In this document: positions 2,962-37,368 of the stretch, piece by piece
Position numbering within the stretch: the stretch's first letter is position 1
Layout: each line of letters opens with the position of its first letter
From: Candidatus Peribacteria bacterium
GTDB taxonomy: Bacteria; Patescibacteriota; Gracilibacteria; Absconditabacterales; Absconditicoccaceae
NCBI GenBank assembly: GCA_023898485.1
Contig: CP060225.1
Coordinates: forward strand, 548,848 to 612,847
Length of the DNA: 64,000 nt
Direction: 5' to 3'
Notes under the pieces: model-generated
Seen by the model: the letters and a program-made list of their open reading frames with translations, nothing else
What the model was told of the DNA's origin: nothing
Database searches by the model: none
Program-made: the position numbers and the translations under genes

Positions 2962-3963
2962 TTGATGCATCATTTATATGATATGTCAATGATACGAATG
3001 GCATCACTCACGAGAAAATGGCGAGAATATCCACTTATGGCAGTCACTGCTACTACTGTAGCATTCGCTATTATTCTAATCTATGATCGATCGACCAGTC
3101 CTGATCGTATCTCCGAAAAACCACTCCTCGACATGGACTACACACAGATCGACGAAGATGAGTCACAATCCGAAACGGGTCTGGATCAGTTTTTCCAAGA
3201 AGAACTCCTCCAAGAACTAGAGCCCCGTCATGGAGCTCCTGATAGTGCGTTTTATAACGACAAACTCAACACACTCTGCTATAGCTTTCGTGATGTGTGT
3301 GACCGTGTCAATCTTGTAGACTCATTCAGCAGTAGAGATCGCTATTTCTACACCGCGATACCGATCTATCTGACACACTATATGGATCGCTATGGTGATC
3401 TCGATTATGAGATAGAAGACATTCTCCATACTATCTCCATTTCCTCAGATCCTGGCCGTCGCGGCTATGCCAATCACGATAGTATTATCATCAACACCAG
3501 CGATATCGATTCCGTCCGTGAGTATCTCGAGATCATGACACACGAGCTTGGACATATTGTCGATCTTGGATCTGTCACTGGCACCATGCGCAGAAAAGAC
3601 ACCACCTACACCGAATTTGGTCAGGCGGTCTTCGCACTTGATGATCCATCACTCGACTATTATCGCCTCTCACGAGCCAATGAGACGACAAGAAATGCTG
3701 GTCAGACTCGCGACGACTTCTGTAGTGGCTATGGACAGCGCAATCCCTTCGAGGATTTCTCCGAATGTATGAATCTCTATATCAACCATCACGATCTCTT
3801 CGAATACATCAGCAGTCGTAGTCGCACCCTTGAGCGTAAATACACATATATCAAAAAACTTTTCGATGGATTTTATCTCTACAGCGATACTGCATCTATT
3901 CGCCAATATAGTCATCCCTCTGACTTCTACGTCTTCGACACCAGCAAAGTTTGGCAATCATAA
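2962..3963 (+). CDS. Membrane-anchored hypothetical protein with HExxH zinc-protease motif
   Basis: Complete 333-aa ORF ending in TAA. An N-terminal hydrophobic helix (LMAVTATTVAFAIILIY) is present. The motif THELGHIVD is present. The exact start among several ATGs is uncertain. Confidence 0.55.
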   Translation: MMHHLYDMSMIRMASLTRKWREYPLMAVTATTVAFAIILIYDRSTSPDRISEKPLLDMDYTQIDEDESQSETGLDQFFQEELLQELEPRHGAPDSAFYNDKLNTLCYSFRDVCDRVNLVDSFSSRDRYFYTAIPIYLTHYMDRYGDLDYEIEDILHTISISSDPGRRGYANHDSIIINTSDIDSVREYLEIMTHELGHIVDLGSVTGTMRRKDTTYTEFGQAVFALDDPSLDYYRLSRANETTRNAGQTRDDFCSGYGQRNPFEDFSECMNLYINHHDLFEYISSRSRTLERKYTYIKKLFDGFYLYSDTASIRQYSHPSDFYVFDTSKVWQS

Positions 3964-4085
3964 AACCTTATAGATACTATTTTGTCTGCTCATAATAATC
4001 TTAGCTATGTAGATCATCACAGTATATTGCAAATCAGCCTACAACTCATATATAGTATACAATCATTTATCATTGCATATCTATT

Positions 4086-4793
4086 ATGAGACTTTTTATA
4101 CTGAGTGATGACACTTCATATCATATTACAAAGAATAGTGATTGTAATACACTAACGCTCCATGAATGAAGAATCATCAGACATGCACATGTGATCAGGC
4201 TGCGCTATGGAGAAGATATCACCATACAGATCGGTAACACAAGGTATCTATGAGTTGTAGACCAACTCGATAGGGCAACACTCACTATCGCTATCCATTC
4301 ATCACAGCTGCAACCACCATCATGTGCTGACAAACCCATTACCATGGCTATCGCATTGCCCAATACTGGCAATAAACTCGATATGATCGTCGAGAAGCTG
4401 ACTGAGGTGGGTGTACATCACATCATCTTTTTCTCTGCAGAAAGATCACAGATCAGAACACTTGAAGATAAAAAGCTCTACAGGCTCCATATTCTCGCCA
4501 TAGAAGCTGCAGAACAATCCCATAGATGGACTATACCAACAATACAATATATACAGCACATCCATGATGTATTATCAGTAGATGGTAGCAAAGTTATCTT
4601 CGATAAAGAGGCAACATGAACCATGCCTCATGAAGCCACTATCTGATTAGTCTGACCTGAATGATGATGGAGTCCATCAGAATTGCAACAGATGGAGCCT
4701 ATTGCCTGCGTTACACTCTGAGAACACATCCTTCGTATGGAAACGGCTGCAATAGTAGGCGGCTGGACACTTGCACAACACTCAACCACATAA
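4086..4793 (+). CDS. rsmE: 16S rRNA (uracil1498-N3)-methyltransferase RsmE
   Basis: ATG 4086, TAA 4791-4793, 235 aa with 8 in-frame TGA. The C-terminal motif reads (G)LV(G)PE(G)(G)WSPSE, so the RsmE GPEGG motif has its glycines written as TGA. Track ORF 4344-4619 is its central piece. Confidence 0.8.
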
Positions 4794-4877
4794 CTATGAG
4801 CACCATGAGTGCTAAATTTGACAAACAAAGGTTCTGACAGTATACTTGTATTACTTTATGACTTCTGTCATCATAGT

Positions 4878-5330
4878 ATGTCCAAGGTTCTCTTCCCTAG
4901 AAACGTCCAAAAAGGACTCTTCAACATGAATATGGCGATCGGACCACTCACGGTGAGTCTGGTACAAGTATTTTTATTGATGGTGGGTTTGGGTGCTGCG
5001 TTGGGTACATTTCAGCTGGTCTCCAATGGCAGTGCCGGCAACAAAACTGCTGGACTTATTGTTGCGATACCGGTATTACTCGTGTTCGTAATTATTGCTT
5101 TTTTTAAGATTTCGGAAATGGGGCTACTGGAGTTCGTGACCAAAATGGTAAGGAATTACTTTTTCGATAGTAATCAAAAATTTCAGACCCAATATACGAG
5201 AATCACCGATCCGCAGTCCGTCCTCCTGGAGCGCGTTCGCACCAGCGAAAAAACAGAAAAAATCGAGACCAAAAAACTTCTTATGGATGAACAGGAGCTC
5301 GAAAATATAAGGAAGGGAGGGTTACTGTAA
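4878..5330 (+). CDS. PrgI-family small membrane protein (type IV secretion/conjugation-associated family)
   Basis: MSKVLFPRNVQKGLFNMNMAIGPLTVSLVQVFLLMVG..., a second TM helix, then a basic/acidic tail. This architecture is typical of PrgI-family proteins annotated in CPR genomes. The start was chosen at the internal ATG 4878 of track ORF 4809-5330. Confidence 0.5.
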   Translation: MSKVLFPRNVQKGLFNMNMAIGPLTVSLVQVFLLMVGLGAALGTFQLVSNGSAGNKTAGLIVAIPVLLVFVIIAFFKISEMGLLEFVTKMVRNYFFDSNQKFQTQYTRITDPQSVLLERVRTSEKTEKIETKKLLMDEQELENIRKGGLL

Positions 5331-5349
5331 TAAATTCTTTTCTCAATAT

Positions 5350-5375
5350 AAGAAAAGAGGCGTACGCCTCTTCTA
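5350..5375. terminator. Bidirectional hairpin between the convergent PrgI-like gene and recA
   Basis: aaaagaggcg-ta-cgcctctt perfect stem, flanked by A-run and T-run. It overlaps the recA stop codon. Confidence 0.6.
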
Positions 5376-6440
5376 TTCAGTATCTGATTCGTCTTCCATT
5401 TTGCCTGTTTCGAGGACATTCATAGCGTCATCGTCGAGGACCTGCTCACCCATGCGCATTTTCTTGATAGCGGTCTGGATTTGTTTTTCGAGTTTTTCAC
5501 GAAGTTTGGGGTCGGATGCAAGTGCTTCGATGAGATTGGCTTTGCCTTGGACTTTGTGATCACCGATACTGTAGTATGCTCCAGCACGATCGATTGCCTT
5601 GAGGAGAATACCCGCTTCGATGACATCAAGTTCTTTATCATATCACACGTTTCGTGCGACAGGAAGTTCAGCTCTCTTAAACGGAGGTGCGATCTTATTT
5701 TTGACGACTTTGACTTTGATATTGTAGCCGACTTGTTCTTTGCCTTCAGTGATAGCTTCACCTTTGCGGACTTCGATACGCTGTGATGCGAAGAATTTGA
5801 GTGCGTGTCCACCGGTTGTTGTTTCTGGATTGCCATACAAGACACCGATTTTCATACGGATCTGGTTGATGAAGATAACGGTTGTCCCTGTCTTGGCAAG
5901 GATAGAAGTGAGCTTTCTGAGTCACTGAGACATCATACGAGCTTGGAGACCGACAAAACTATCGCCCATCTCTCCCTCGACTTCTGCACGAGGCACAAGC
6001 GCTGCGACAGAGTCTACGACGATGAGTTTGACTGCTCCCGTCTTCGCGAGTTCTTGAGTGATAGAGAGCGCTTGCTCTCCATAGTCTGGCTGAGCGAGTA
6101 ATAAGTTGTCAGTATCTACACCGAGTGTGCGAGCAAATGCTGGATCCAATGCGTGTTCTGCATCGACAAAGGCACATGTTTCACCACGTTTTTGGAGTTC
6201 TGCGATAGCTTGGAGCGTGATCAGTGTCTTACCAGAAGATTCAGGACCATAGATCTCGACGACACGACCCTCGGGCATACCGCCTCCCAAGATCATGTCT
6301 AAGACGTAAGAACCCGTGTGGAAGGTGTTGACCTGACCAACGTTGGCACTGTCGCCCATACGCATGATAGCTCCTTTTCCAAATTGTTTTTCAATGTTTC
6401 ATAGCGCCTCTTTGAGGACTTTGTCTTTGCCGTGTGACAT
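5373..6440 (-). CDS. recA: Recombinase RecA
   Basis: Track fragments 5922-6365 and 5643-5855 are in one frame. The joined translation reads [13 protein letters not shown](G)[16 protein letters not shown]...GPESSGKTL...ARMMSQ(G)LRKLTSIL...[23 protein letters not shown].... ATG at 6438-6440, TAG at 5373-5375, 355 aa. Confidence 0.95.
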
Positions 6441-6482
6441 TCGTTTTTATAGTGAGAAGAGTATAAAACTTCGCAAAGGATT

Positions 6483-6564
6483 ATGGAGGGTAATGAAGGA
6501 TCATAAAGGGTGATAAAGGATGTGTTTCCTCTATAAACCTTTCTTAACCTTTATATACCTCTAT
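6483..6564. promoter_or_regulatory. Inverted array of 10-bp-phased heptamers (4x ATrrAGG, then 4x CCTyTAT) upstream of recA
   Basis: ATGGAGG 6483, ATGAAGG 6493, ATAAAGG 6503, ATAAAGG 6513, then an 8-bp spacer, then CCTCTAT 6528, CCTTTCT 6538, CCTTTAT 6548, CCTCTAT 6558. The same architecture recurs at 31052-31136. Confidence 0.55.
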
Positions 6565-6642
6565 CGCCCTCGATTTTTATCAGAAAAATGGAAAAATGCA
6601 AGACCAAGGGAGTCAGACCCGAACCCTTTTTGGAGAAATGTG

Positions 6643-9600
6643 ATGAGAGTCAGTATACTGGGGGAAGTATTTTATGTAGTTTTTCTCAAACTTATGAATC
6701 CCACTCTCGATAGTTATGAGGCAAAAGTATCACAAGCTGAGCAACTTGCAAAAAATGAAGCTATAGCAACTAATAAAAAACTAAAGAAGGAGCTCTTCAC
6801 TCTTACGCAAGAATTGGAGGAAGAGGAAAAGATTCTTGCAAAAAGTATCCTTGAAAAAAGCGGGAAAGATATATTACAACAATTGCAACAAAGAAAACTA
6901 GAAGCTATCAAGGATATTGATTTTTCTGATATCAAAGAAGAGCTTACTAATCTCAAGCATACTACTACTGAAACAGTAGATAATGGTATCGTGAGTACTA
7001 CTACGACGACAGAGGTGATAGATGGAGATGACGTAACTGAAGAAAAAAAAGGATCCTGGGATAAGACAAAGGAAAGGCGAAACAAGATGTCTACTGGAGG
7101 CAAAGTTTTGACTAGTGGAATCGTTGTGTGATGAGCAATATTATTATGGAAATGAGTAAAAAGTATCTTCTCCTCCAAAGAAGAGGACACGGAAAAAAAG
7201 AAAAGTTTTCGAGAAAGTACGACAGGAAAAATTGTAAAGTGGACTGGTATTGGTTCTGCTGCCTACTATGTTAGTCATGGTCTTGCTACAGGAAAACGAT
7301 GACTATGAGATCTTCTTGACTGGGATAATAAAAATGCAGATTGAAATGACTCACCAGAAAATCAGGTAGAAAGCTATGAAGAGCTACAAAAAGAAAATCC
7401 AGAAAAAGTAGAAAAATACGAACTACTATGAGATAATGTAGATAAGCTCTATACTAAAATGTATGGACCAGAACTTCGTGCAGGACGAGAAGATGATGCT
7501 AATATGAGTACTTTAGCACAAAAAGTAAGCAACGGAGAAAGGCAATACACATGAGTGGTACCATTCTGTCTTGATAATCAATTTAAAAATACCGATAGAC
7601 TTTTATCCGAACGTTGACAAATTGAAGCTGCCGTTTCAAATAAACTAAAATGAATGCGGGAATATCTGAAAGGACGATGAGAGGATGGTCTTAAATTTTT
7701 TGCACAGACAGCACTGAGTGGATTACCCTCATGGACAAAATATCTCACATGAACATGAACATGGGAAGAGAAAATAGGTAAGTGGATAGTGGACTATGGC
7801 TCTGAAGCAGAGACTAATATGGCATTTTTCTTTAGACAAAGCATGAGGGTGCAGACATACCTCTTACAGAAGAAAGATCAGCTTATGCTTCAGATCGCGT
7901 ATGAAAAAACTGGAATTAAAGATGAAGATAAACTACGGAATAAGATTCATGATGAAGAACGGTTTGCAAATAATATTGCTCAAGATAGTCGCTATGTTAA
8001 TTTTTCCAATGGGACCATAGCTGAAGCAACAGCTATACTGAAGCAAGAAAGCATGCTCGATGATACTATTGGAGAAACGCTACAATGAAGTGTAGATGCT
8101 TTGGATAGGCAAAGAGCAACTATTCTTATAGAAAAAAATAAGAAAGATATTGTAGTGAGAGGAAAAGAATCTCTTACTGCAAATGGCAAACTCTCTGAAG
8201 AAGAAACACAAGATACTATTACTGCTTGCGACAATGTCATAAAAGATATTGATGATGAGATTATTGATGTCGTAGAGGAAAGTGCTCATAATATCTATGG
8301 TGATCTTCTCAATACTGATGATGCCGCTATGAGAAAATATTTTGATGGTAGTAAGTTTCGCCCACTTTTTGATGAAGCTAAAAATACTATCAATGAAGCT
8401 AAAGGAAAACTAAGAGCTGGTAAACTTACATCAAAACAAACTAGAGATCTACTTGATAGCCTTAATAATATGATGGCACTCAAAAAAGAAGCTATTATAG
8501 GAAGAGAAACGATACAAAAAGAAATAGATGAAAATGGGAATATTATATATAGGATACCTTCATTCTTACAGTGATCACTAAAAAACTTCTTTGTAACTGG
8601 CTTACGAAAAGCTGGATCGTGAATAGTTCATGGTGATATGGAAGAGATAATAGGGGGATTAGAAAATATCTGATCTGGATGGCTAGGTACATGAATTACA
8701 ATTACTATTATTGGGTGAGTAATCTGGATCAAAAGTTGATTTAAAAATGCAACTCTTATAAAAACTGGAATTAAGATGAATACTCTCCCCATTTACTGGC
8801 TATGAAAACAAGCTAATAAATTCGAAGTAGTTCGTAATCTTGGGAATAAGGTTAAATATGGATCTACCTCACGACTGCACATGCAAACATTCTGGAGAGG
8901 TGAAGCGTGACCAGATAAACTTATGAAACTGCTCAGAACAGGTGATATCAATATCGAAATGGCAGAATCTATCATTCGCAAGAAATGTAAACCATGACGA
9001 TGAATAAGTGGTAATCAAGCATGGATGGATTCATTCAATATTAGTAGAACAATGAAAGCATCAGAAATTAATTTTAGAGAGAAAATACTTGTAGAACTTA
9101 TAGGAGAGCAAGATGAATACTGGAAATCACTCAGTGAATCAGCTCATTATGATGAAATACTTAAAAACCTTGATGACCCTAAGATCATGGATCAAATACT
9201 CAACAAAAAACCTGTAACAAGTATTATGCAAGAGATCAATAAGATCAATGCAGTGGTCGCTCCTGCTCTATCTCCATCCATTTCTACGGCCCCCAAAACC
9301 CTCTGAGTCTGATTAGAAGTTATCAGTGCCAACGGCAAAAGAGGAAAAATCATAGCAGAAATAAATGGACAATTCCAAGTAAGGTATGAAGGCGGAGGAA
9401 CAATTCTCACAAAGGCTGAAACCCTTACTCCTCTAGATCATACTACATTATGAATTGGGTCGGATGTCATCAGTACGAACGGTAAAAGGGGTAGGATAAT
9501 AGCAGAGATCAATGGACAATTTCAAGTAAAATATGAAAATGGAGGTACAATCCTCACAAAAGCTGAGACACTTACAAATATCACTGGCTTTACTGACAAT

Positions 9601-10059
9601 CAAAGAACTCTTACCACTACTGTAATAAATGAGATCGGTGATCTCAATCGTATTACCTATGGTGATGGAGCTGCAAAAGCACAAAGAATTGCAAGCATCA
9701 AAAAACTTGAATCCTTTACGAAAGAAATCTCATCACTCGATGATGCTGCTATCAAGGGGATTAGATCTCTTGCTGATATGGGAATGAAACCAAGATATGT
9801 AGCAAGCATGATTGAAACAGGTGTAGATATAAAATGATTTATAAAAACACTCGAAGCACAAAAAGGTCTTAACTCGCTTGATGACGTAGTGAGACAATCT
9901 CTCAAAATAAATGGCGGAGAAGCATTTTTGAAACAATTTGATAACGTAAATTTTAGCAAGTTTGCTCATATATTTGATGAAACCGTAGAAGTATGAAAGA
10001 TAGCTAAAATCGGTTCTCATCTCGACGAATTTGTCAAAGTACTGAAAGCAATCACATAA
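6643..10059 (+). CDS. Giant hypothetical protein A (about 1138 aa), coiled-coil rich with Gly-rich hydrophobic segments
   Basis: Track ORFs 6520-7131, 7789-8088, 8101-8574 and 9025-9306 share one frame. My hand translation between them meets only TGA. The first TAA is at 10057-10059. Start at 6643 has GGAGA 6 nt upstream. ATG 6694 is an alternative start. Confidence 0.7.
9319..9576 (+). repeat. Intragenic tandem duplication of a 37-aa module (period 147 nt) in giant protein A
   Basis: VISANGKRGKIIAEINGQFQVRYEGGGTILTKAETLT at 9319-9429 versus VISTNGKRGRIIAEINGQFQVKYENGGTILTKAETLT at 9466-9576. Confidence 0.8.
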
Positions 10060-10080
10060 TTTATCTGACCACCTCACTTC

Positions 10081-13000
10081 ATGCCACTCAAACACACCGA
10101 AGATATAAAGATTCAGAAAGCCAAAGAAGATTTGGCAGAACAGTATGTTGCTGAATTTAAGGATGAACTCACTGGTCTCAAGAAGATGGGTATTTCTTTG
10201 GTGGAGAAAAAAATGAAAGAGCTTCTCCTTCAAGACACAGAACTTACTGATAATAAAAAAGATTATAACCTGACTCGATGGCAAGAAACGCTTGCTTCGT
10301 TATCGCCTACACTCACTGATAAAGTCATCAATTTCCTCAAAGAAAAACAAAAACTCCTTCTCAAAGTCCAAACACAACAACAACTAGAAGCGCTTAAGCA
10401 GTGAATCGATCCAACAACAATCCCTGAAGAACAAGAAAGTGAATCAAATAATGCGCCACAAACCCCAGAAAATAATAATAATCCAGAAGATAATATCTCT
10501 CCTGAGGAGTCTCCTGACAATGTCCATATCGTCAATGCAGAAAATCCCATGATATGAGTAGGAGTATTGGGTTCAGGCATGGTCGGATGGGCAGGACAAG
10601 AAAGACGAGCTCATAATAAACTCTGATCTCGTGCTGAAAAACTTACAAACGCCATTAGTCAGAAAGAGCTCAAAACGTCGCTTCAAGAAATTCAGAAAAC
10701 CCTCGAAGCGCAAACACACAATCCCAAACTACTAAAATTCCAAAAGGATAATATCAAGAAAACACTCAAAGTATTCCAAGAAGCTGAAAAAAATAGTAAC
10801 GCTGTTGCTGATCTCAAGCTCCGAAAACAACTCGCCAAGACGAACAAAGTGTCTGGTGCACTTTTTGAAAAAATGAGCGCAAAAGAAATACAAGCTCTCA
10901 GCAAAAGTCTTGCCACTGTCGTCGATGATACTGCCTTTTTAGAGCAGATAGCGAAAACTTCTGATCCGACAGCCATCAAGTCCCTCCTCCAATCCAAAGG
11001 AATCACTACTATGACCGATACGATGGTCGAGTCGCTTGCGCGCATTGATAACGTGGATGATGTCGCATCACTGACGCGTGTCTTGAGTAAATGATCAGAA
11101 ATCAGTTCTCTTGCAAAAGCTGCTAAATTTCTTCCACTCATTGATGTAGCTGCATTATGATATGATCTCTACAATTGGAATCATGATAACAACCAGGCTG
11201 ATGCAATGAGAAATGCAGTAAGAAAAGACATAGCCCACAATCGTGCTAACGCCCATCTTGCTGCATGAGTAGCAAATGCTCTCTTAGGTGCTAGTGCCCT
11301 CTTGGCTTCCGGACCTCCATGATGGGTTGCTGTGGCAGGGGTTGCAGTCATAGAGTGATGAAGAGTAGCTGCAGATAAGCTCTACTACGATGTGCAAGAC
11401 TTTTATGGTCAAGATGAGGTAGATTTTGCTACACAGGAAGAGATACAAGTAGATCAAGCAATCCTTGACGCAGTGGCTGGAGGCGGACGAGACAACCTCT
11501 CTCTCAATGAGGGTGTCTGTGAGTTTTTTGGAGGTATCGATAAGAGCAAAAAGATGAATACCATACAGGATGCACTCTGGGCAAAGATATTTTTGGATGA
11601 AAAAGATGACTTCCCACTCGTCTATGAATATATGCAGATCCAGGCTTATAAAGCTAATCTAGAAAGCTATACTCCCGAACAACAGCAAAGCATCCATCAG
11701 CAAGCAAAAGCTTTTGAGTCTAAACAGACAGATTATGAAGCACAAAGAAAAAATCTCGATACTATTGTAGCTACGAGAATGGAATATATTACACCATTTC
11801 TCCCTGGTGGTAATCGCTTTGCCGAATTTACTCAGAATATCAAAAATAGTAAGGGTCTTGCTGCCATCAATACTATCGTAGCTCAGAGCAAGACATATCT
11901 CGAAATGAAGGCAGATCCCAACACACAAGCACAAACAGTAGAAGCATATCTTACAGAAAAAGAAACAGCGCTACAGCAAGAAAATCCTCATATATTCGGA
12001 GAGTTGAAAAAGATAGCAGACAATAACCCTCAGCAATATGATGAAATTATCCATCATACTCGTGCATTTAGCATGATAGATGAGGGTACCTATCGTGCAG
12101 AAAATACCACACTCTTCACTACGGCGGACTATCTCATCCGTTGGGATGACTGGTATCAGGCAAACCATCCCCATAATCGTACAACACTTACCATAGAAAA
12201 CGACTACAGTGGTATTGAAAAAACACTTACAGACTTATCACAATGAAAATCACTGCAATTTACTGTGACACCCTTCACACAAGAAGAATTATCCTTCTGA
12301 CTTGATAGTATAAGCAATAACAGTCAGGAGCAATATGCTGATGGTCTGTGACACAATGTATTGTATCGCTTCCTCCGTGAATTCTGTCATTATACTGGCC
12401 ACAATGACATGATAGAAATGCAACAGTTTGCTGAGGATGATGGTGGTGAAGCAAGAAATGATGCTCGTGGCATCTATTATGATCCAGCGGAAAAACAATG
12501 GTTCATCAATGACGATAATGCAAGAGATTGGCCCGTTAATCTCCATGATATGGAAACTATGACGCCTGAAGAGCGATGAAAAAAATACTTCTTCGGTAAT
12601 CCAGGCACAGGTAAAAAAGCTATCATAGATGGTGACACAGAAACAATAGATGCAGAAAAAACTGATGAATTTATCAACACCTTCATACGTATTATAGGAG
12701 AGGAAAAAGCACAAAGAACGCCAGAACACCAGAAAAAGGTGTCTGATGAAATCGTTTCTTATATCAAAAATAATGCTCAGACCAACTGATACATCCTCCT
12801 CCCTCATCATCTCATAGCTGCTGGTGTTCGTGCAGGCTTGGGTGAGATGCAATATTGGTTTTTCTCTCTCGACGCACAGTGAAAAATACTAGCTGTCACT
12901 GATGCTGCGCATATTTCATCACCACTACGTTTAGAAAACGTTGCCAAACAATACAACAGCACAAACTGAAATATACAATCTTTGCATAACTCCCAAGAAA

Positions 13001-13476
13001 AACAACAAGCAATCAGTCAGATAGATACTATGATACAAGAAATCAGCAAAACCATGGGAGAGTTGCAGCTTTCTGAAAGAGGCAAAATCTCCTATAATCC
13101 GGAAACGTGAGAATTATCATCATGGTGAACCACTATCACCTGTCTCTATGATACCAAGAAAAAAACACGAAATCTTGGTGATGCATTTCCTATTGTGTAC
13201 AAAAATATGAAAGATGCACTGTGGATAGCAAACCTTACCAATCGTATCAGGGCGTACAAAAAAGAACATGGAGATGCGGTATTTCAGCGATGATATATGG
13301 GTGTCAAAGATGGTCTGTATAACACTGCTACCACACCCGATACACAAATCCTTGATCCTGATACGATAGATTCACATTATGCTGCTAGCTTCTCCAAAAA
13401 ATGGAGAGAAACTATGATAGACTACTATAATAATTTGCCTGCAAAAGTTGACAAAGCAATATCTGAAAATGTATAA
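10081..13476 (+). CDS. Giant hypothetical protein B (1131 aa) with central hydrophobic Gly/Ala-rich segments
   Basis: ATG 10081 lies 21 nt after the stop of A, in the same frame. Track ORFs 10081-10404, 10849-11094, 11392-12246 and 12361-12579 are linked only by TGA. TAA at 13474-13476. Hydrophobic stretches include (G)VGVLGSGMVGWAG and AHLAA(G)VANALLGASALLASGPP(G)WVAVAGVAVIE. Confidence 0.7.
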
Positions 13477-13510
13477 TATATTATAATTCTTACTTCTTTC
13501 CTTATTTATC

Positions 13511-14386
13511 ATGCCTCTCACACTTGAAAACAAAAAAGATATTGCCTGACAGTTTGCTGAAGGTATTGCTGCTAAACAGGGTCTTCCTCTGCCTCAAGAA
13601 GCAAAAGACTTTTTCGTTGGTAATGTAATAAGCGAATGAGATAATGCTTTTGAAAAGGCATTTGATGCTATAGGAGATAAGCTGAAATCCAAATTATTGA
13701 CAGAAAGCGCTGCTAAACTTATTCCTGGCTTACACGAATTATCAAACCTAGAAGAACAAGTGAGAGAATCACTCGCAAAAGATGATCTTGCATGATTAAA
13801 ACAACTAGCTCAAGAAAACAATATTGTTGTCAATCTTCCTACCACTCAATATGAGTGAGAAGATCAACCCGCTCTCGCGGAAGTTAAAGAAGAAATTACT
13901 GATCAACAGCAACCAACAAAAACACCCGAAATCAATGAAACACTATGTGATACCAAACCACTAGAAGAAGCTAAAAAACACCTTGGTACCAAAGAATGAA
14001 CTGGAGCAGCAGATATATTTCTTACACCATTTATGGGTAAATGAGCTAGTGCAAAAAAGACCCCTTGGTGTGCTGGATTTGTATCATACTGTCTCAAAAA
14101 TACATGACATGAGGTTTCTAAAAATCCTGTTTCAGCAAAAAGTTATGCGAACGAACTTGGAAAATGACATATCGCTTTTTGGGATAAGGAAGCTAGGAAA
14201 ATGATAGCTGGAAACTATAGCGACAAAGTTGCTTACCAACCATTGCCAACTTCATTTGAGCGGAATACACCTGAAAGGATAGATCAAGGACTCTTTGATG
14301 GATTACCCGCACAGTCTCCTGATGAACTACCTGATGGCGCAATTATCATCATGGATCGCTGATCATCACAGCGCAATATGGCTTAA
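13511..14386 (+). CDS. Putative peptidoglycan hydrolase, NlpC/P60-CHAP superfamily (TIGR02594-like C-terminal domain)
   Basis: 291 aa with 10 in-frame TGA. The C-terminal region reads KKTPWCAGFVSYCLKNT(G)HEV...LGK(G)HIAFWDKEARKMIAGNYSDKVAY, which matches the WCaaFV ... GHVgf ... GGNQsdkV pattern. The candidate catalytic Cys codon is at 14069-14071. Confidence 0.55.
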
Positions 14387-14778
14387 TTTATAGCAACCTC
14401 CACTACATACATCGCCTCTTCATGTGATGTGTAGACAGGACAGGGATCGGCGAGGCAGGGCTGCATCGTGGTCTGATCGGCCACGTTTTTTTCAGAGTCG
14501 AGAAAATACATGTGGAGTGGGATGAGAGTGTTTTTCATCCAAAAAGAACGATACTCAGACTCCTCTCGGACGAACAGCATACCATATCACGCTGGGAGAT
14601 AAGTGCGATACATGAGACCTTTGGCTTTTTCGAGTGGCGTGGTGGCTACTTCGAGGATGGCACAGTGTTCGACACCAGCATCATATCGACAGTCATAGGT
14701 CAGTGGAAGCGGACGATAGGGAGTTATCATCGCCTGGAGTCATCGAGCGAGAGCTGTGGCTATGATAGATCATGTCAT
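14383..14778 (-). CDS. DUF192 family protein
   Basis: ...LEVATTPLEKAKGLMYRTYLPA(G)YGMLFVREESEYRSFWMKNTLIPLHMYFLDSEKNV...YVVEV. It extends track ORF 14383-14580 upstream through TGA. The convergent stop codons overlap by 4 nt. Confidence 0.6.
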
Positions 14779-14878
14779 CTGAACACTCCCCCAAAGAGAT
14801 AAAACAAGTACCTTGCACTACTCTACCAATTTACTATATTCAATACAAGAATACTTCATTATTTGTCATCTCTGCATC

Positions 14879-15526
14879 ATGCTCAAAACCATTAGACGAA
14901 TTATCACTATACTTTTGCTCGGTTTCATCGCGACGCTGCTTTGGAAGATCGTCCAGCAAAACAAAACACAGCTTGTCATCGATGATCGTGCACCACTCAT
15001 CGTCCAGCAGCTTCGTGCTGTCCAGAGACTAGAGACTACGGAGATGAAAGTGACCAAAATTCTCAAAGGAGAACAAGAATTATCAGACTATCTTCCAGGA
15101 TTTGATCGGGACAACATCGTGTCTGATTTTCTTTTTGGTGAATCAGTATCGATGGAAATTTATGGAACCGTCACAGCGGGGTTTGATCTCAGCCAACTCA
15201 CCACAGGAGCAATCATCAGTGTCGGGACAGGACTCGTGGATATCCAGTTACCGAGTGCGGAGATACTCCATGTCTCCCTCGATCCTGAGACACAGGTCTT
15301 CGATAGAGACCTCGGCGTACTCAACAAGGGCGATGCAACCACAGAGACCAAACTCAGAAACCAAGCACTCGATATAGTCCGTGAAGCTGCTATCCAGCAG
15401 TGAATACTTGATGAAGCTGCGATTAATGCGAAAAGTGCTTTGCAATCCTTGCTCGGCACCAGTGCCACTGTCCGTGATATTACCATCGTTCCCGCTACTG
15501 ACCAGACCAATTCGTCACAAGAATAG
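14879..15526 (+). CDS. DUF4230 family membrane-anchored protein
   Basis: MLKTIRRIITILLLGFIATLLW TM anchor, then ...VTAGFDLSQL...IQLPSAEIL.... One in-frame TGA (15401-15403). TAG at 15524-15526. Confidence 0.55.
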
Positions 15527-15584
15527 ATCATGAATCGTTACCTGTAGCAAAGATAGTTATCTTTTAGTATCTTCTTCTCATTCT

Positions 15585-17861
15585 ATGAAAACATCACTTG
15601 TTATCAGTATTGCGGCACTCTTGGTCAGTGTACCTGCGTTTGCTCAGACCATCAATGATGAACTTAGCGATCAGATACAAACAGAAACTCTCTCTCTTGA
15701 TCTCCAGTTTGAAGAGGTCGCGAGCTGTACTGCGCTGGATAGTCGTATCAAAGAGTGGATCGAAGATCATAAAGATATGCGAAATAAACGTAATTACTAT
15801 ATTATGGAAGATGCTGCATCATATGGTTTTGGTGTCAATCCAGCGCGTATGGATGTAGTATGAATAGCTGGTTCTGCATCGGACACCTCTGCTGTTGCAA
15901 ATGAATCTAGCATCCAATCCTCTACCAATGATTACTCTACTACCAATATCCAAAAGGTAGGAGTCGATGAGCCCGATCTGTACAAAACCGACGGTGACAT
16001 CCTCTACTACTACAATAATACAGACCACATGGTCTACCTCATCCAATCTCCACTCGACCGTGCGAACCAGACGATCACCCTGTCTGATATGCAAATTCTT
16101 GCGCAGATCAAAATACCTGACACACTACAGTCTAGTAATCTCTATGTCTACGATGATGAACTTATTATCATCGGTAGTAGACGAAAAGAAAATCCTCGCA
16201 GACGAGGATGGTTTGATGGATCATCGACGACATTTGTCGCGCGCTACGATGTCAGTAGTAGTACCAGTTCTACACTGATCAACTATACTGAATACGATGG
16301 CTATCTCCTGGATAGCAGACTCTCCCTCACCGATGGCACACTGATCGTCATGACGACGGTGTCTCCTTCATGGTATAGTATCTGGGAAGATGATGTCATC
16401 GCTGATGATGAAATGGTCCTCCCGAGGACTGTAAGTATCACACCTACTGCTACAAGTTGGGAAAGTAATGTGACGAGCATAGATTGTGCGCAGACATTTT
16501 TACTCTTGCCAAGTGATGATACACTCGAACAGATCGGTGACTGGCCATCGTTTACCACTGTCCATACAGTAGATTTGGCAACCGATACAACATCAGACTA
16601 TGCGACGTTTGGTTCTGCGGGTCAGGTCCATGTCTCCCAAGACCATATCTACCTCGCACAAAACATCTGGCTCCCACAGGGTCAGTACAGCTGTCCAGCT
16701 GATGCTCGCTGCGCGATGCCTCTCATTTGGGGCGGTAACAATAGTACACTGATTCACGGTTTCAAGAGAGATGGTATCCAGGTTTCTTATCAATGATCCA
16801 ATCTCGTCGAAGGATTAGGGCTCGGTGATCAGTATAGTATGGACGAACAAGATGGATACTTTAGGATCTTGACATCCGTCTGGTGGCCTGAACAAAATAC
16901 CCATCTCTGGGTACTGGATAAAGACCTCAATCTCGTAGGCAAGCTCACCGATATCCAAAAGGGTGAAAGTTTCCAGTGATCACGCTTTATCGATGATAAG
17001 CTCTATCTCATCACCTTCGAACAAGTGGATCCTATGTTTGTGATTGATCTCGCTGATGAAGAACATCCAGAAATTATCGGTGAACTCAAGATGCCTGGTT
17101 GGAGTAACTATCTCCATCCTATCGAAAGTGGTAATGATGGTAATATCCAATATCTCATCGGTGTCGGCTATGATGCAGGTGAGAATGAGTGGGGTGGTAC
17201 CCAAGCACAAGGGGTGAAAGTAGACCTCTATGCAGTCAATTATATCCAAAAAGAAACGACAGACTCCCTTTGTGGATCGCTTGATAGATCAAGTGAGGAA
17301 TACGCGACTTGTCTCGAAAACGTCGATACCAATCGCATACGTGTCGATCGTCTGGATAGTTTGATTTTTGGAGAAGATCAGAGCTATACTCCTGTCGCAG
17401 AAAATCCTAGACTCTTCGTCTATCGCGAAGATACCGGCGAACTAACACTCCCACTGCTTGAGAAAGCCAAGAGTAAAGAAATCAAACGCTGTACCGTGAC
17501 ATATGAAAACGGTGTCGCTACCGAAACTGGTGACTGCTGGGCGGAGACACAATATGCAGACACTTTCGCTGGATATAAGGTCATCAGTATCGACCCTGCT
17601 CAGTGAGATGATGCTATGAGTGTAGAGTTTGAGCGTAACTTTTTGGATCAGATCGTTGCAGCACTCGAAGCAAACAGTGGCAATGGCGACTACTACTACG
17701 AAAAACAATACGGACTCGGTTCATGGACCTTCGAACAGATGGGTCCGAGAGTAGCTTTTGCAGGAGATGCACAGCTGTTTTTGACGAATTTCTTCGTCAA
17801 TGCAACCATTGGTAATCAAGAATATACACTTCCACTTGCAGGGACAGAACTCAATGAGTAA
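15585..17861 (+). CDS. Secreted beta-propeller domain protein (Beta_propel/COG4880-like)
   Basis: Signal peptide MKTSLVISIAALLVSVPAFA. Track ORFs 15585-, 16029-, 17025- and 17616-17861 are in one frame. The motif (G)SRFIDDKLYLITFEQVDPMFVIDLADEEHPEIIGELKMPGWSNYLHP is characteristic of this family. 758 aa. Confidence 0.7.
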
Positions 17862-18608: not shown

Positions 18609-19400
18609 TTATCGATGATACTGCTCCACATATGTCTCAAAATGCTTTATGCTATCATCATACGCATTGAAAAGGAAAGGTTGCACATCACGTATCAGAT
18701 ATCCTTTATCTTGTGACTGGATGATATCTATCAGATATGCAATAGTAGACTGACGATCGTGCCATCATAATAACTGATCTAATATTTCATGATTTGGATG
18801 AATGCCCTTATCCATCAAAAATTTCAGATCGAAATAATCTCTTCCTTTTGCTCTTCTGCGCTGTCCGATAGTATATATTTTCATTGCCATAATGACTTCC
18901 AATGGCGCAACCTGTATTAATGCATTGGTACCAAAGGTGGTAAGAGGAATAATCATAGGCTCATATTGCAACTGTTGATCATGTGTATCTACTTTAATGA
19001 CAAGTTTTTCTTGCACTTCTTCTCTCGTAGTTGGAGCAAGTCCATAATTTGTTAGAATATTTGATAGTTTGATAGTAGCATGATACGCTTGCTTATGTGT
19101 ATATTTTACCTCTGTTTGCAATCACAAGAGTGCTAGCTGATCACAGAGATGTGCTATGATCACTTGAAACCTCTCATAACTAATACCTGTGTTATCAAAA
19201 TCAAGATCTTCAGAAAATCTTGGCAATCCATGCACTATCCTCAGCGATGTCCCACCGATAAAGATCAGCTCCCCTGCATCCGGTCATCTAAACAGATACT
19301 GCAATATCACACACTGCAAATATTCCCTCAAAATATCCCTCCTATGTATTTGAATAGGCTCAGGATAGACAGACAAGAGGCTGTCTCGACTATACAACAT
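18609..19400 (-). CDS. AbiEii/AbiGii-family nucleotidyltransferase toxin (type IV TA)
   Basis: MLYSRDSLL...RRDILREYLQCVILQYLFR(G)PDAGELIFIGGTSLRIVHGLPRFSEDLDFDN.... The track ORF 18765-19121 is extended on both sides through 3 TGA codons. 263 aa. Confidence 0.8.
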
Positions 19401-20013
19401 CCTCATAGATATATGCTATAAAACGATTTACTCTTTCTCTTAATTTTTGGTTGGAATAACGCTGACCGTAATACTCTAACTTCTCTCTATCGATCACCAT
19501 ACGTACCTCATCACTATCTATCCTCCACTCATCAAAAGCATCAGCATCATCCATCTCATGATGATAATAGAGATAATCGATGATTGCCTTTTCTGGTTCT
19601 GCCATCAGTATCGTGCGATCATCATAATGCAATAATTCATATCACCGGAGATACTGACTCGTGATGCTATGATAGTAGAAAATACTCACATCACTCACAA
19701 ACGACTGCGTCTTACGTGTCGTGATACTCGTCACTGATGGAACTATCTCTGGGATGAAGTTGTAGTAGCGTAGGGCAGTCTCCAAACTCACATATGATGG
19801 ATGATAGATATGATTGGCTATCTCTCGAAGATCTTCTTCTTGCACAAGACGATCGCGGATGGCATACCATCATCTTCTGATCTGCACTATCTTGGCAGTC
19901 TGCTGTCGATAGTAGAGATGTTGCGATGTTAGCGATGGGAAAAACTTCCTCACCTGTTGCGATGAAAAATACGTCTGTGTAGGGAAAATTTCTAACAACT
20001 CTTGTCGCTTCAT
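19390..20013 (-). CDS. AbiEi-family antitoxin/transcriptional regulator
   Basis: MKRQELLEIFPTQTYFSSQQVRKFF...RR(G)WYAIRD...YVSLETALRYYNFIPE.... Two track ORFs (19642-19845 and 19390-19632) are joined. Its 3' end overlaps the toxin start by 11 nt. Confidence 0.75.
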
Positions 20014-20145: not shown

Positions 20146-23100
20146 TTATTTCTCTTCTACAATTAATAAAATCTTTTTCTTTACATGATCTACTTTATTT
20201 TTTAGTATTTTTCGTGGTGTTTGAGGCGGAAATAATATTTCTTTTTCTTTTGCTGAATGGTCACTTGTACTATACTTTTGGACATCTACTCATGAATGCG
20301 AATTTGTAATAACTATTTGAACTGAGTACTGATCATTAATATTTTGACTTACTTCATTATAGTCTATATCTAAATCTAAAATTATCTCATGTTGTTTATC
20401 TGATTTATTCGTGTGTCAGTCCGTTTGTGGCAAGTTATTTTTAAAATAACTTCACAGACTTTCCCTAACATCCCTAGTTGTTGAAAAATATCCATCATCC
20501 TTATAGGTATCACCCCTTTTCAGATTTACTATATATTGAATTAAATTTTCATCTTCTGTATTAAATCACCTATATAAAAGTTTTTTTTGGTTATATTTTT
20601 CAAATCTATTTTCCTTAAATCATTTCCTTAAAAAATATTCTCATAACACTGAAACCTTAGGATCATTCACATCTGGATTTTCAATCAATTTAGTTATCTT
20701 TCATCTCGATATATGATTATATCACTTATAATGATCTTGAGAATACAAGTTCAATGCCCACTGATAATAGTCTTTGTCTGAAAAAAAAGTTGTTTGAGGA
20801 CCAGAGAAAGATTCTAATCTAACACCCCCTGAGAGTATTTTTTTAAATATATACTTTTTTTGATGATCATTTAATGAATTTATATATTGAATATACTCCC
20901 GACTTATTTTGTTTCTATTTGGTACAAGCGCATTAACCTTCTCCCGGATATGATGGTTTTCTGAATTTTTATAATCAGTAAATGTTTCAAAAAATTCTTC
21001 AAAAAATGTGGCATTTGTACCATTAATGAATAGCTCGTCTGAATTATTTCTCGTTCAAAATATCGATTTTAAATCGTTGTATGATCATGCATCGTAATAA
21101 TAATAAGAAAGTTGCAATCAATATATTTCCTGCACAGGGATTCATATTTCTTTACTCAATTGCGCTATTTCTTTTTGATAAGCAAGAAATTCTTCTTGAT
21201 CCATTTTTCACTGTGCGTGTTTACCTATACTATCATTTGTCAGTAAAAATTTCGCAATCTTTTCTTCTTTTCAAGTAATACCTATGGCATTTAACAAATC
21301 ACTTACTATTATCTTTGCGATATTATGTTGTTTATCTTTTGATAGTCACATTTTGATTGCAATCGCCTTAGGTATATCATGTATGAGTAATATCTTTCAT
21401 ATTAAATCAATATATGACCTAGGTAACCTGTTGAATGATTTTCCAAACTCCTTCATAACTAGTTCAGTATGACCTCTTAATATTTCATGTCATGGATCGT
21501 CTACACCTGTTGGGAGATCAAAAATATCTTTGAACTTAAAAAAGTCATAATTTTCTTTATTAAATATTGCATCCTTTATTTCTAGAAATCACATTCATTT
21601 ATATTTCTCTAACTGATTTTTGAAATAATTATATTCAAAATCATCGTTAATTTTAGTTTTATAATGCATATTTTTTATCATACTAGGAATATCCCACTTC
21701 CCACAAAATCCACCTTCCAACAAAAATCTTCTGACTCCCTCGTCGGGTATGGTGGTTGTAAGCAGCTTAACTTTCGCTTTGAGTTCAGCTGGAATGAGTT
21801 TGCCGAGCTCTCCTGGGAGGAGATGGGTGCCGATGATGGTCTGGATCTGTGCATCAGTGAGATCTAGTTTTTGACCAGTCATGGTCTCGTATTGGGTCTT
21901 GATGCGGTCTCTGATCTGTTGGAGATCTGTGGTACTATCCATCCATCTACTGTTTTCTCTCGCCTGCTTACTATCAAATCAGAAGCGAGAGGATTTTCAG
22001 AAGTAGTCATTAAACTTCGCTGTCTCCGGAGAGAATGATCAGTCATTATTGATGGACTTAATATCAGTATCGTGAAATACAACTATCTCGTTTCTCTGTC
22101 ATTTTGTAGCAATCACTCCATCAAATCAATTACCTTTTAAGAATTCATCATAATAAGAGTCGTTCTTTATTCTTATTAATAGCGATAAACATTTTTCTAG
22201 ACTATAGTCTCATCATTCTTTAATATTTTTTGCAATGATATAATCCTGACTTCATGTATCGCCCTGTTGAATAATTTTACTTACTATATATTCATTGATT
22301 TCAGTAGAATATAGATTGAATCCATTTACTTGATCGAAGCCTTTATATGGATTCCTCACATTAAGAAACATAGCATACTGAACACTAGCATCTTCTGTTA
22401 AATGGAATTGTAATATAATATTATGTGTATCTGGTGTAAAGTAAAATCATTTACCAAAAGCATTATTTTTTGATTTTTTAATATCAAAATAATTAAATTG
22501 CTTGGAGGAGAGGTGATACACCATCAACGGCTCCCCATTTTCATCAACTACCTTACTTACCTGTGTCTTATCAGCACTAGTTCGATCACCAAATCGATTT
22601 GTAAACTCTGGTGTCCTGACCTGTAGCCATGTCTTGAGAGCTTGTTGTTCGCTAAATCAGTCAGCTTTCATCTTTGCAAAGAGTTGACTTGGTTTTTTCT
22701 CACCATTGACTTCTACCAATATACTTTGAATAGATCCATCTGGTTTGAGAGTAATATTTCCTCAGAATAGTTCATCTTGTAGAATAGCTTCTAAAGCTTG
22801 AGGGTTTATAATTCCTTTCAATAATTCTGGATGAGATTCGATAATGACTTGTGCCTGTTTACTCATTTTTTCATGTGTAATCTTCTCGTTTGGTGATTGT
22901 TTGGTTTCTAGCCCACTCTTATTATGTCTCATATGTTCTAGCATCTGAAGATCCTCCTCATATGATTTTACTAGGGCTTGGAGAGTTTTTTTTTCTTCTG
23001 TTCCTATTCATGGTTTTTGGAGTGTTTCTTGTGCTAGTTTCTTCGATTGCTCTCCTGACTGTTTGAGCTTCTGATAGTCAACTGTCTTGAGTCAAGTGAT

Positions 23101-36534: not shown

Positions 36535-37368
36535 TTATGATAGTAGTCTATCAAGAGGAGAAATGATCTTGTCTAGTGCGGGCTGCATGACGTGCGTATA
36601 GATCTGTGTCGTACGGATATTGGCATGACCCAGCAGTGTCTGCACATAGCGGATATCAGTCCCTTGTTCTAGAAGATGGGTAGCGAAACTGTGGCGTAGT
36701 GAGTGAAAGGAAACCTTTTTTGTGATTCACGCTTTTTTGCACGCTTTAGAAAAAATCGCCTGTGCTGTTCTAGTTGTGATTTTCCCTCATTGATCATTAT
36801 AAAAAACATACGGAGATGATGGTGATGATTTTCTATGACGTGCTAATTGTTCTTCGGTTGACTGAGGTAATATTACCACTCTATCTTTGGCTCCCTTACC
36901 GTGTTTGATATGAATAGTGTAGCGATCACCATCTATATCATTCCATCTGAGATTCACTATCTCAGAAATACGCAATCCACATCCATATGCCAACGATAAC
37001 AGCAGTGCGTGCTTTGGATTGGTGGTCACTTCTATGAGCTTACTTACCTCTTGCGTAGACAATACCACAGGCAAACTACGTGGCTCACGGGATAGTTTCA
37101 ATGCAATATCAAAAGTACGATTATACAGGAGAAGAAAATATTTTTTCAATGCTTCTTTGTATACATTGATCGTCTTAGATGCCTTGTCTGATGCAACCAA
37201 TGTCATCAAATAGTTGGTAAGTGTCATATCATCAACATATTCTCCCTCCTGCTTATACCAGAGGAAGAATGATTTTACAGACTGTGTGTAGGATTTCACT
37301 GTCTTGGGACTAAAATGTTGATTGATAAGTAGCTTTCTAAAATAGTGTAATTTTTCGTTTTCTGTCAT
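36535..37368 (-). CDS. Tyrosine recombinase/integrase (XerC/XerD-IntI-like), intact
   Basis: Track ORF 36787-37368 continues through 2 TGA codons into ...(G)[46 protein letters not shown].... The R..HxxR..Y catalytic set is recognisable. TAA at 36535-36537. 277 aa. Confidence 0.8.

Follow-up and report, generated by a model that had tools for sequence, protein, structure and literature searches.

The succession, on the chromosome of a Candidatus Peribacteria bacterium, of two very large genes of no recognisable family and one gene for a cell-wall hydrolase has led us to wonder what these three genes accomplish together. They lie within a stretch of 64,000 nucleotides (nt) of contig CP060225.1 (positions 548,848 to 612,847), hereafter the window, and we refer to them as A, B and C. 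We see in them a clade-specific cassette, self-contained and inherited vertically, and we incline, with a confidence somewhat short of even, to the reading that a membrane assembly made of A and B recruits C and exports or positions it for local cutting of the wall. In the literature that we searched the cassette is not described, while the giant membrane proteins and wall hydrolases of predators are mentioned (PMC8080830; bioRxiv 10.1101/2023.11.21.568195). The logic of a membrane assembly with a dedicated and replaceable wall hydrolase is already known, and the novelty would lie in two families without detectable relatives. As such, the cassette provides a concrete, clade-wide candidate for wall opening by ultra-small epibiotic or predatory Patescibacteria.

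The genes come into sight only with the proper genetic code. Translated with table 11, the A-B-C region falls into short open reading frames (ORFs); when UGA is read as sense, the ORF content of the window rises from 8,873 to 30,771 amino acids (aa), counting ORFs of at least 150 aa, and all three frames are open across 29 in-frame TGA codons in A, 19 in B and 9 in C. The UGA codons of the neighbouring recA gene fall, on inspection of the sequence by eye, at conserved Gly positions of E. coli RecA, which argues for code 25 (UGA=Gly) and not for code 4; judged by these codons, the genetic code of the window is code 25. This is the code of Gracilibacteria and Absconditabacteria, and the nearest RecA among GTDB representatives (70% identical) comes from a code-25 metagenome-assembled genome labelled Peribacteria. 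The three ORFs reported in a preliminary description of this DNA are real, though under code 25 only: B and C are as given there, and both the gaps (21 nt between A and B, 34 nt between B and C) and the common frame of A and B are correct. In the public protein collection, genes of these families are stored as code-4 translations (UGA=Trp) or as code-11 fragments; for instance, the entry P0003 is the table-4 translation of a gene of L082, one of the loci outside the window that we designate by L numbers. Such storage inflates Trp to about 5% and conceals the families from word-indexed searches, with the consequence that these loci are invisible unless translated with code 25.

The B family surfaced only with an exhaustive HMMER search. 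In a word-indexed search of 5.8 billion proteins, A and B each matched only the orthologue in L001 (a single 9.4-kb contig); a word-indexed search with the C domain gave no match, nor did a scan of GTDB with B. The L001 orthologue of B, 70% identical to it end to end, retrieved 87 cluster representatives at E<=1e-3 in the exhaustive search, 20 of them at E<1e-30. Many of these representatives, 1100-1500 aa in length, can be aligned over their full extent with 26-36% identity, and 54 matches are short fragments. Full-length members have a median Trp content of 4.8% and a depressed Gly content; high Trp, low Gly and fragments would all be expected if genes of UGA-recoded genomes had been called with code 4 or code 11. 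The label candidate division SR1 is attached to one source genome, and the NCBI annotation of a family member reads hypothetical protein. Both the A and the B family look confined to UGA-recoded Patescibacteria of the SR1/Gracilibacteria type. Gene B has no match in Pfam, NCBIfam, PHROGs or PADLOC, no Pfam domain is found in 31 full-length members of its family, and the family profile finds no relative among PDB sequences. The AlphaFold2 model of the L001 orthologue (P0002), built on a 31-sequence alignment, reaches a predicted local distance difference test score (pLDDT) of 73 and a predicted template-modelling score of 0.58; it is helical up to about aa 800 and continues into an alpha/beta C-terminal domain. 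Foldseek returned nothing significant for this model (best PDB match E=1.7; best BFVD match E=0.09, TM-score <0.15). The polar N-terminal region of B (about 160 aa) has no signal peptide, and the hydrophobic cluster at about aa 345-440, kept in all family members examined, is modelled as three long helices.

How constant is the company that B keeps? The 12 loci fetched outside the window represent 10 independent places (L084/85 and L086/87 are paired), and contexts were inspected for eight B-family representatives, plus L001. The order A-family gene, B-family gene, wall-enzyme gene is found in nine of nine independent loci with unfused genes (L001, L082-L084, L086, L092-L095), which bears out the trio as a unit. 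Directly before B, each of the eight contexts has a domain-less ORF of 947-1440 aa (cut at the contig end in L094), and directly behind B a gene for a wall-active enzyme; phmmer or a hidden Markov model (HMM) confirmed these upstream genes as A-family in all but L095. Gene A itself matches those of L082 (E=1e-70), L083 (E=5e-56) and L084 (E=7e-26) by phmmer; the L086 gene enters the family through L083, and the A-family HMM recovers L093 (1.6e-147), L092 (2.5e-64) and L094 (4.7e-18). The HMM does not reach the gene of L095, which has diverged too far and resembles A by motif only. In L001 the gene order is that of the window, namely a PrgI-like gene, recA on the opposite strand, and the counterparts A', B' and C'. 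The genes that flank the cassette differ between loci and are housekeeping genes.

In L002, A and B are joined in one ORF, which exceeds 2136 aa and matches first the A HMM at residues 138-1074 (E=2e-26) and then the B HMM at residues 1526-2045 (E=5e-11). This fused ORF is followed by an NlpC/P60 and a VanY enzyme gene, both products being without signal peptide, and then by lexA and recA. Following the Rosetta-stone principle, such a fusion indicates that A and B are functionally coupled and act as one unit. The A and B families are not paralogues, given an hhalign probability of 1.3% between them. In L082 a third large gene (3423-6596, 1057 aa) precedes the A-family gene and has only the C-terminal domain in common with B (B-HMM 1214-1318, E=1e-5); to judge from this arrangement, the cassette can be expanded by partial duplication.

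Gene A has no match in Pfam, NCBIfam or PADLOC, and against PHROGs it gives only two sub-threshold matches (E=0.029 and 0.064) to families of unknown function; the A-family profile has no PDB relative. The A-family structure model, built on a 7-sequence alignment, has a pLDDT of 44 and is too poor to interpret; it is overwhelmingly helical, as is the B-family model. The A family would consist of uncharacterised large, all-helical, membrane-anchored proteins, with a topology taken from hydropathy alone. About 136 polar helical residues, without signal peptide, precede the first transmembrane (TM)-like segment of A, whose position is kept across A-family members in the hydropathy scan; a weaker amphipathic segment follows (7225-7293), and the proteins of L082, L083, L084 and L086 are hydrophobic at the same position as the second segment of A (about aa 630-690). 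The hydrophobic Gly-rich segments that the preliminary description had placed in A (aa 154-172 and 676-696) and in B (aa 157-172 and 391-427) are present. The open frame proposed there for A (6643-10059) stands, and its start does not: the gene most likely begins at the ATG at 6694 (MNPTL...), because the upstream DNA, about 95% identical in L001, is frame-shifted there by a 2-nt indel and because a -10-like TATACT (6654-6659) sits downstream of the ATG at 6643. Gene A evolves fast. Between the window and L001 its ends are 54% and 31% identical and its core cannot be aligned by BLAST, when the RecA proteins of the same two genomes are 86% identical. We rejected the idea of a hypervariable, replaced core, since the core of the window is canonical (E=1e-70 to L082); it is in L001 that the core has diverged, and even there a weak profile match (E=1e-4) remains collinear. 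The tandem 43-aa repeats of A match no family.

The third position of the cassette is filled by enzymes of different descents (Table 1). Here two protein families for which Pfam, NCBIfam, PADLOC and the PDB show no relative, and PHROGs no significant one, are tied genetically to a wall-cutting enzyme whose catalytic domain has given way to non-homologous ones on at least five occasions. No signal peptide or TM segment was found by hydropathy scan in the third-gene products examined. By eye, the M23, YkuD and M15 versions seem to have kept their catalytic ligands, in the M23 version the HxxxD and HxH motifs. The M23 enzyme of L084 and the NlpC/P60 enzyme of L092 have a common N-module (E=6e-47), which by eye is seemingly also that of the NlpC/P60 enzyme of L002. 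Compared with the N-terminal module of B, this hydrolase N-module gives an hhalign score of 26.0 (E=0.0012, probability 19%), where 100 column shuffles reach 19.0 at most; this weak resemblance is suggestive, and we treat it as a lead and not as a result. An N-module common to B and to all hydrolases was rejected, since L086 alone reached significance in an HMM comparison that included decoys (E=0.0025, the best decoy scoring 0.0099); we do not claim it for the C of the window.

In the window, C comes close to a well-known fold. Its match to TIGR02594 (E=6.4e-10) scores 39.5 bits against a curated cutoff of 70.55 and covers only profile positions 3-69 of 132, and Pfam CHAP and NlpC/P60 give nothing at E<=1. 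Among PHROGs it matches phrog_1259 (baseplate hub subunit/tail lysozyme) at E=1e-9, with weaker matches to endolysin families; in phage genomes, tblastn detects proteins annotated as peptidoglycan hydrolase, endolysin or tail lysozyme at about 30% identity. The motifs PWCAGFV, GKGHIAFW and AGNYSDKV noticed earlier are present at aa 185-240. In an alignment with four phage lysins, two of which score above the Pfam CHAP gathering score, Cys187 (PWCAGFV), His220 (GKGHIAF) and Asn235 (AGNYSD) occupy invariant columns, Asn235 being aligned to the invariant Asn of GGNQSD; the Cys/His dyad is therefore intact. C lacks about 17 residues that each of the four reference lysins has between the Cys helix and the His strand, and this deletion accounts for its weak scores with TIGR02594 and with Pfam CHAP and NlpC/P60. 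Accordingly, the TIGR02594/CHAP-like fold assigned to C in the preliminary description holds through its dyad and its alignment with phage lysins, and a family match at the curated level does not. C would be a relative of the papain-like amidases with a Cys/His(/Asn) site, a trimmed new member of a known enzyme family. Like CHAP/TIGR02594 amidases and endopeptidases it keeps the W-C, G-H and G-N motifs; unlike them, it has an N-module of about 118-140 aa and no signal peptide, and is encoded after two giant membrane proteins and not in a lysis or tail cassette. It has a single catalytic domain and, in the hydropathy scan, no signal peptide, hydrophobic segment or membrane anchor, when signal peptides of the ordinary kind can be recognised in proteins encoded nearby in the window (e.g., MKKVLAIITALMLGVGMFSPALAA). 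C and its L001 counterpart are 74% identical in their catalytic halves and have different N-termini, the one having been replaced.

How could these three products work together? We propose that A and B, two unrelated, large and mostly alpha-helical proteins, would together make one membrane-embedded assembly, each bringing a few Gly-rich hydrophobic segments behind an N-terminal region that is polar and has no signal peptide. C would be a modular peptidoglycan-cleaving enzyme composed of an N-terminal adaptor module and an exchangeable catalytic domain, the one of the window being a trimmed amidase or endopeptidase of the CHAP/TIGR02594 type with a Cys-His-Asn site. Since it has no signal peptide, C cannot use Sec, and we infer that the A-B assembly binds and recruits C and exports or positions it, after which the enzyme, if active, would cut the cell wall locally where the assembly sits. 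Granted this membrane-assembly reading, we give a slight preference, just above even, to the wall of a host or prey cell at the attachment site as the target, the alternative being the bacterium's own wall. The preference comes from the epibiotic predation of the lineage, the fast evolution of A and the effector-like swapping of domains. A life as epibiotic predators, with secreted wall hydrolases and membrane proteins of giant size, has been documented for Absconditabacteria (PMC8080830).

Several points weigh against an exporting membrane assembly directed at another cell. No transport, ATPase or pore domain is recognisable in A or B, the model of A stops at a pLDDT of 44 with a topology drawn from hydropathy alone, and no immunity-like gene follows the hydrolase gene. 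Deprived of about 17 core residues and placed below both curated thresholds, C could be inactive or a mere binding module. An internal promoter at the end of B, kept in L001, suggests that C is expressible independently of A and B. The housekeeping context, the clade-wide retention and the recA/lexA synteny (window, L001, L084 and L002) would fit a core role at least as well, and YkuD and M15 domains are often enzymes of wall maturation and not of lysis.

A core role is precisely what would be expected if A and B were the scaffold or regulator of a dedicated autolysin that remodels the bacterium's own wall during division, elongation or the insertion of envelope structures, with a logic like that of FtsEX. 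We hold this explanation to be possible, if on balance rather unlikely. It draws on the position of the cassette among housekeeping and envelope genes, on its conservation in distant members, on the partial synteny with recA/lexA in the four loci just named and with Bac_transf in L083 and L093, and on an ABC ATPase gene (ABC_tran) two genes upstream of the L082 cassette, L082 being the one locus with such a gene close by. It is also helped by the lack of an immunity gene and by YkuD and M15 domains, which are typical of wall-maturation enzymes. A helical N-module followed by a C-terminal CHAP, NlpC/P60 or M23 domain mirrors the hydrolases controlled by FtsEX (PcsB with CHAP, CwlO with NlpC/P60, RipC, and the M23-like EnvC), in which a membrane complex is coupled to an enzyme of this build and the catalytic family that fills the role varies from one lineage to another. 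However, FtsEX partners carry signal peptides and the cassette enzymes do not; A and B, of about 1100-1500 aa each, have neither ABC ATPase nor FtsX-like domains, and neither in the window nor in most loci does an FtsE/FtsX-like pair stand beside the cassette. The M23 version keeps, by eye, the HxxxD/HxH metal ligands, unlike the degenerate EnvC, and the fast divergence of A, the catalytic swapping and the two hydrolases of L002 would be unusual for a core divisome. If the own wall is the target after all, the cassette would represent a new mode of control or export of an autolysin without Sec signals, in a lineage that lacks many canonical division proteins.

The exchange of catalytic domains in one slot brings to mind a different kind of locus, that of a contact-independent polymorphic toxin, where C-type proteins would be antibacterial effectors with swappable domains and A-B their delivery apparatus, serving competition and not feeding. 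Tae-type amidases, M23 enzymes and the YkuD-like Tlde1 are wall-targeting effector families of type VI and type VII secretion systems (T6SS and T7SS). The likeness with such effectors (T6SS Tae/Tge/Tlde1, T7SS LXG) lies in the N-module kept before exchanged C-terminal wall-active domains, as seen between the L084 and L092 enzymes, in the at least five catalytic families found in one slot, in the two potential effectors of L002, and in the lack of a Sec signal with reliance on a dedicated apparatus. We nevertheless judge this improbable: no gene downstream of the cassette is conserved across the loci, be it for immunity or otherwise, the next ORF of the window being cut off by a terminator; no LXG, PAAR, WXG, RHS or MuF trafficking domain was found in A, B or C; a recognisable secretion core is missing; and there is one cassette per locus, in a housekeeping context and not in a variable island. 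A, B and C likewise have no PADLOC match at E<=0.01. Coming back to the membrane assembly, it is tempting to go further and to imagine A-B as a new envelope-breaching and export machine, unrelated to known secretion systems and unique to code-25 Patescibacteria, which would export Sec-less wall enzymes and insert its Gly-rich helices into the host envelope as a conduit for feeding or attachment. This bolder version is doubtful in our eyes; were it true, the choice among the exchangeable catalytic domains would vary with the wall chemistry of the host. Whatever the target, these interchangeable domains constitute a natural source of novel lysins.

The similarity of C to tail lysozyme and endolysin families (phrog_1259 and phage CHAP lysins) raises the question of a domesticated phage module, A and B being derived from tape-measure or ejection proteins and C from a tail lysin, as a prophage remnant or a tailocin-like device. 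Phage tape-measure and ejection proteins, such as T5 pb2 and T7 gp14-16, are thought to span or breach the target envelope. They too are long helical proteins with few hydrophobic Gly-rich segments, next to or fused with a muralytic domain, and the succession of A, B and a lysin resembles their logic; tape-measure and internal-virion proteins even figure, with non-significant scores (E=0.26-0.84, probability <=0.09), in the BFVD list. Against this, A and B have no significant PHROG match and B has no viral fold in the structure search, the cassette is chromosomal and conserved across the clade, and no phage gene, be it for capsid, portal, terminase, tail or integrase, adjoins it in the window or in the 10 other loci. 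A phage origin is thus disfavoured and seems very improbable.

The preliminary description had gone in yet another direction and suggested, as a speculation, a stripped-down apparatus akin to a type IV secretion system (T4SS) of the Gram-positive type, in which A and B would work with the PrgI-like protein and with a CHAP hydrolase of the PrgK type. It is true that CHAP, M23 and NlpC/P60 hydrolases serve in Gram-positive T4SSs, and the hydrolases of envelope machines at large (VirB1/PrgK/CwlT/TcpG of T4SSs, FlgJ, EtgA) resemble C in being dedicated wall enzymes encoded with membrane components and in the variability of their catalytic family (SLT, CHAP, M23, NlpC/P60). The PrgI-like gene (4878-5330) shows a weak likeness to PF12666 (E=0.001) that does not reach the curated threshold (20 bits against a gathering score of 27), and it has no NCBIfam match; it lies beside recA and the cassette in L001 too (88% identity), and a weak T4SS_pilin-like gene is located about 6 kb upstream of the A-family gene in L082. 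However, six-frame code-25 phmmer found a PrgI-like homologue only in L001 among the 12 fetched loci, so that the adjacency is not conserved. No VirB4, VirD4, VirB6-like or relaxase gene was found by Pfam in the 64-kb window (all ORFs >=500 aa and most smaller ones), which agrees with the absence of VirB4 and coupling ATPase noted before, and the Pfam lists precomputed for the other loci contain neither VirB4 nor VirD4. Unlike those machines, the cassette is without ATPases, VirB6/8-like proteins or linked pilins, A and B match no T4SS family, and C has no TM anchor, unlike PrgK. We consider the T4SS reading largely refuted and its chance slim, and with it falls the proposed link to Gram-positive conjugation; of the envelope-breaching apparatus first suggested there remains, as best reading of the conserved cassette, a putative dedicated wall-breaching module.

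As regards transcription, a consensus scan finds a promoter-like TGGAGA-17-TATACT (6631-6659) in the divergent intergenic region between recA and A. Upstream of A-family genes, a motif of the form AGTATACT/GATATACT is found in L001, L083, L084, L093 and L095, and TTTTATACT lies upstream of recA in other loci. Within this intergenic region (window 6441-6693; L001 1862-2042), about 115 nt (6578-6690) keep about 95% identity with L001, when the RecA proteins of the two genomes share only 86%. GAGTCAG occurs twice in this leader, together with a CAGTATACTG palindrome, around the -10 box, and a binding site for a regulator is likely here. In the same region of the window, TAAAGGRT-like repeats make up a 68-nt insertion (about 6480-6547), which L001 lacks. 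A riboswitch or structured RNA was considered for the leader and rejected (fold z=+0.7, chance matches only in Rfam), and the region was reread as promoter and operator. The recA gene adjoins the cassette in the window (5373-6440), in L084 (9990-12078) and in L002 (8503-11080), which stand for three divergent lineages, the last two also having a gene for a LexA-like S24 repressor; this adjacency could reflect ancestral synteny or a regulation linked to DNA damage. Regulation by LexA within an SOS response was set aside, as the window encodes no LexA-like protein and no recognisable box was established. L001 keeps both hexamers of the internal promoter and their 18-nt spacing, with a diverged spacer sequence, and the terminator-like hairpin behind C is the probable end of the transcription unit.

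Table 1. Positions of the cassette genes and their features in the window, and the enzymes that occupy the third position at each locus
Feature	Position	Strand	Remarks
Conserved non-coding promoter/leader, recA-A divergent intergenic region	6578..6693	+	~95% DNA identity to L001, with a frame-breaking 2-nt indel
Gene A	6694..10059	+	1121 aa, code 25 ORF; given as 6643-10059 in the preliminary description
A, first TM-like hydrophobic segment KVLTSGIVVGGAILLWKGV	7102..7158	+	hydropathy scan; aa 154-172 in the earlier numbering
A, second hydrophobic Gly-rich segment IGSGWLGTGITITIIGGVIWI	8668..8730	+	hydropathy scan; aa 676-696 in the earlier numbering
A, two tandem 43-aa repeats LGVGLEVISANGKRGKIIAEINGQFQVRYEGGGTILTKAETLT	9301..9576	+	36/43 identical; read from the sequence
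Gene B	10081..13476	+	1131 aa under code 25
B, smaller Gly-rich patch	10549-10596	+	hydropathy scan; aa 157-172
B, main hydrophobic cluster AHLAAGVANALLGASALLASGPPGWVAVAGVAVIEGG	11251..11361	+	hydropathy scan; aa 391-427
Internal sigma-70-type promoter TTGACA-18-TATAAT	13448..13477	+	12/12 consensus; overlaps the end of B, 34 nt upstream of C
Gene C	13511..14386	+	291 aa; N-module ~aa 1-118, acidic linker, CHAP/TIGR02594-like domain ~aa 150-291
C, putative catalytic triad	14069..14215	+	Cys187 TGT 14069-14071, His220 CAT 14168-14170, Asn235 AAC 14213-14215
Terminator-like hairpin CGTGGTCTGATCGGCCACG and T7 run	14467..14495 (hairpin 14467-14485)	+	consensus scan; 81 nt past the C stop
Third gene, window			CHAP-like
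Third gene, L082 and L084/85			Peptidase_M23
Third gene, L086/87 and L094			YkuD_2
Third gene, L092			NlpC/P60
Third gene, L095			Peptidase_M15_4 (M15/VanY)
Third gene, L083 and L093			unassigned Cys/His type
Two wall enzymes after the A-B fusion, L002			NlpC/P60 and VanY

Around the cassette, Pfam recognises RsmE, RecA, DUF4230, a beta-propeller and an AbiE pair. The DUF4230 protein and the 758-aa secreted beta-propeller (PF09826, E=2.5e-86) are encoded at 14756-17861, past the terminator; these genes are not part of the cassette and are absent beside it in the other loci. Further on, at 20146-26061 on the reverse strand, lies the gene of a 1971-aa protein of the polyvalent type, with an ART-PolyVal domain (PF18760, E=2e-15, aa 1173-1340) and a strongly hydrophobic Gly-rich block (aa 808-869). 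ART-PolyVal is named for the "polyvalent" proteins of phages and conjugative elements; near this gene there is no mobile-element gene except the AbiEi/AbiEii pair (18609-20013). The preliminary description had likened the segments of A and B to those of this giant toxin, a likeness which turns out to be compositional only, the best BLASTP match (E=0.26) covering a hydrophobic stretch of 19 aa. Modules common to A, B and the ART-PolyVal protein were consequently discarded (E=0.26 by BLASTP; 1.3% between A and B by hhalign). Two genes for tyrosine recombinases of the XerC/D type (36535-37368 and 42176-43054, reverse strand) stand within 6 kb and flank LD-carboxypeptidase, RNase III and LCP-family genes. 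Lastly, the reverse-strand gene at 53785-55704 encodes a wall-associated protein of 639 aa, in which a PG_binding_1 domain is followed by about six near-identical tandem repeats of NNSKKNNIPVALTLPNQGKSQTQKPLWMEKTKTKEIE.

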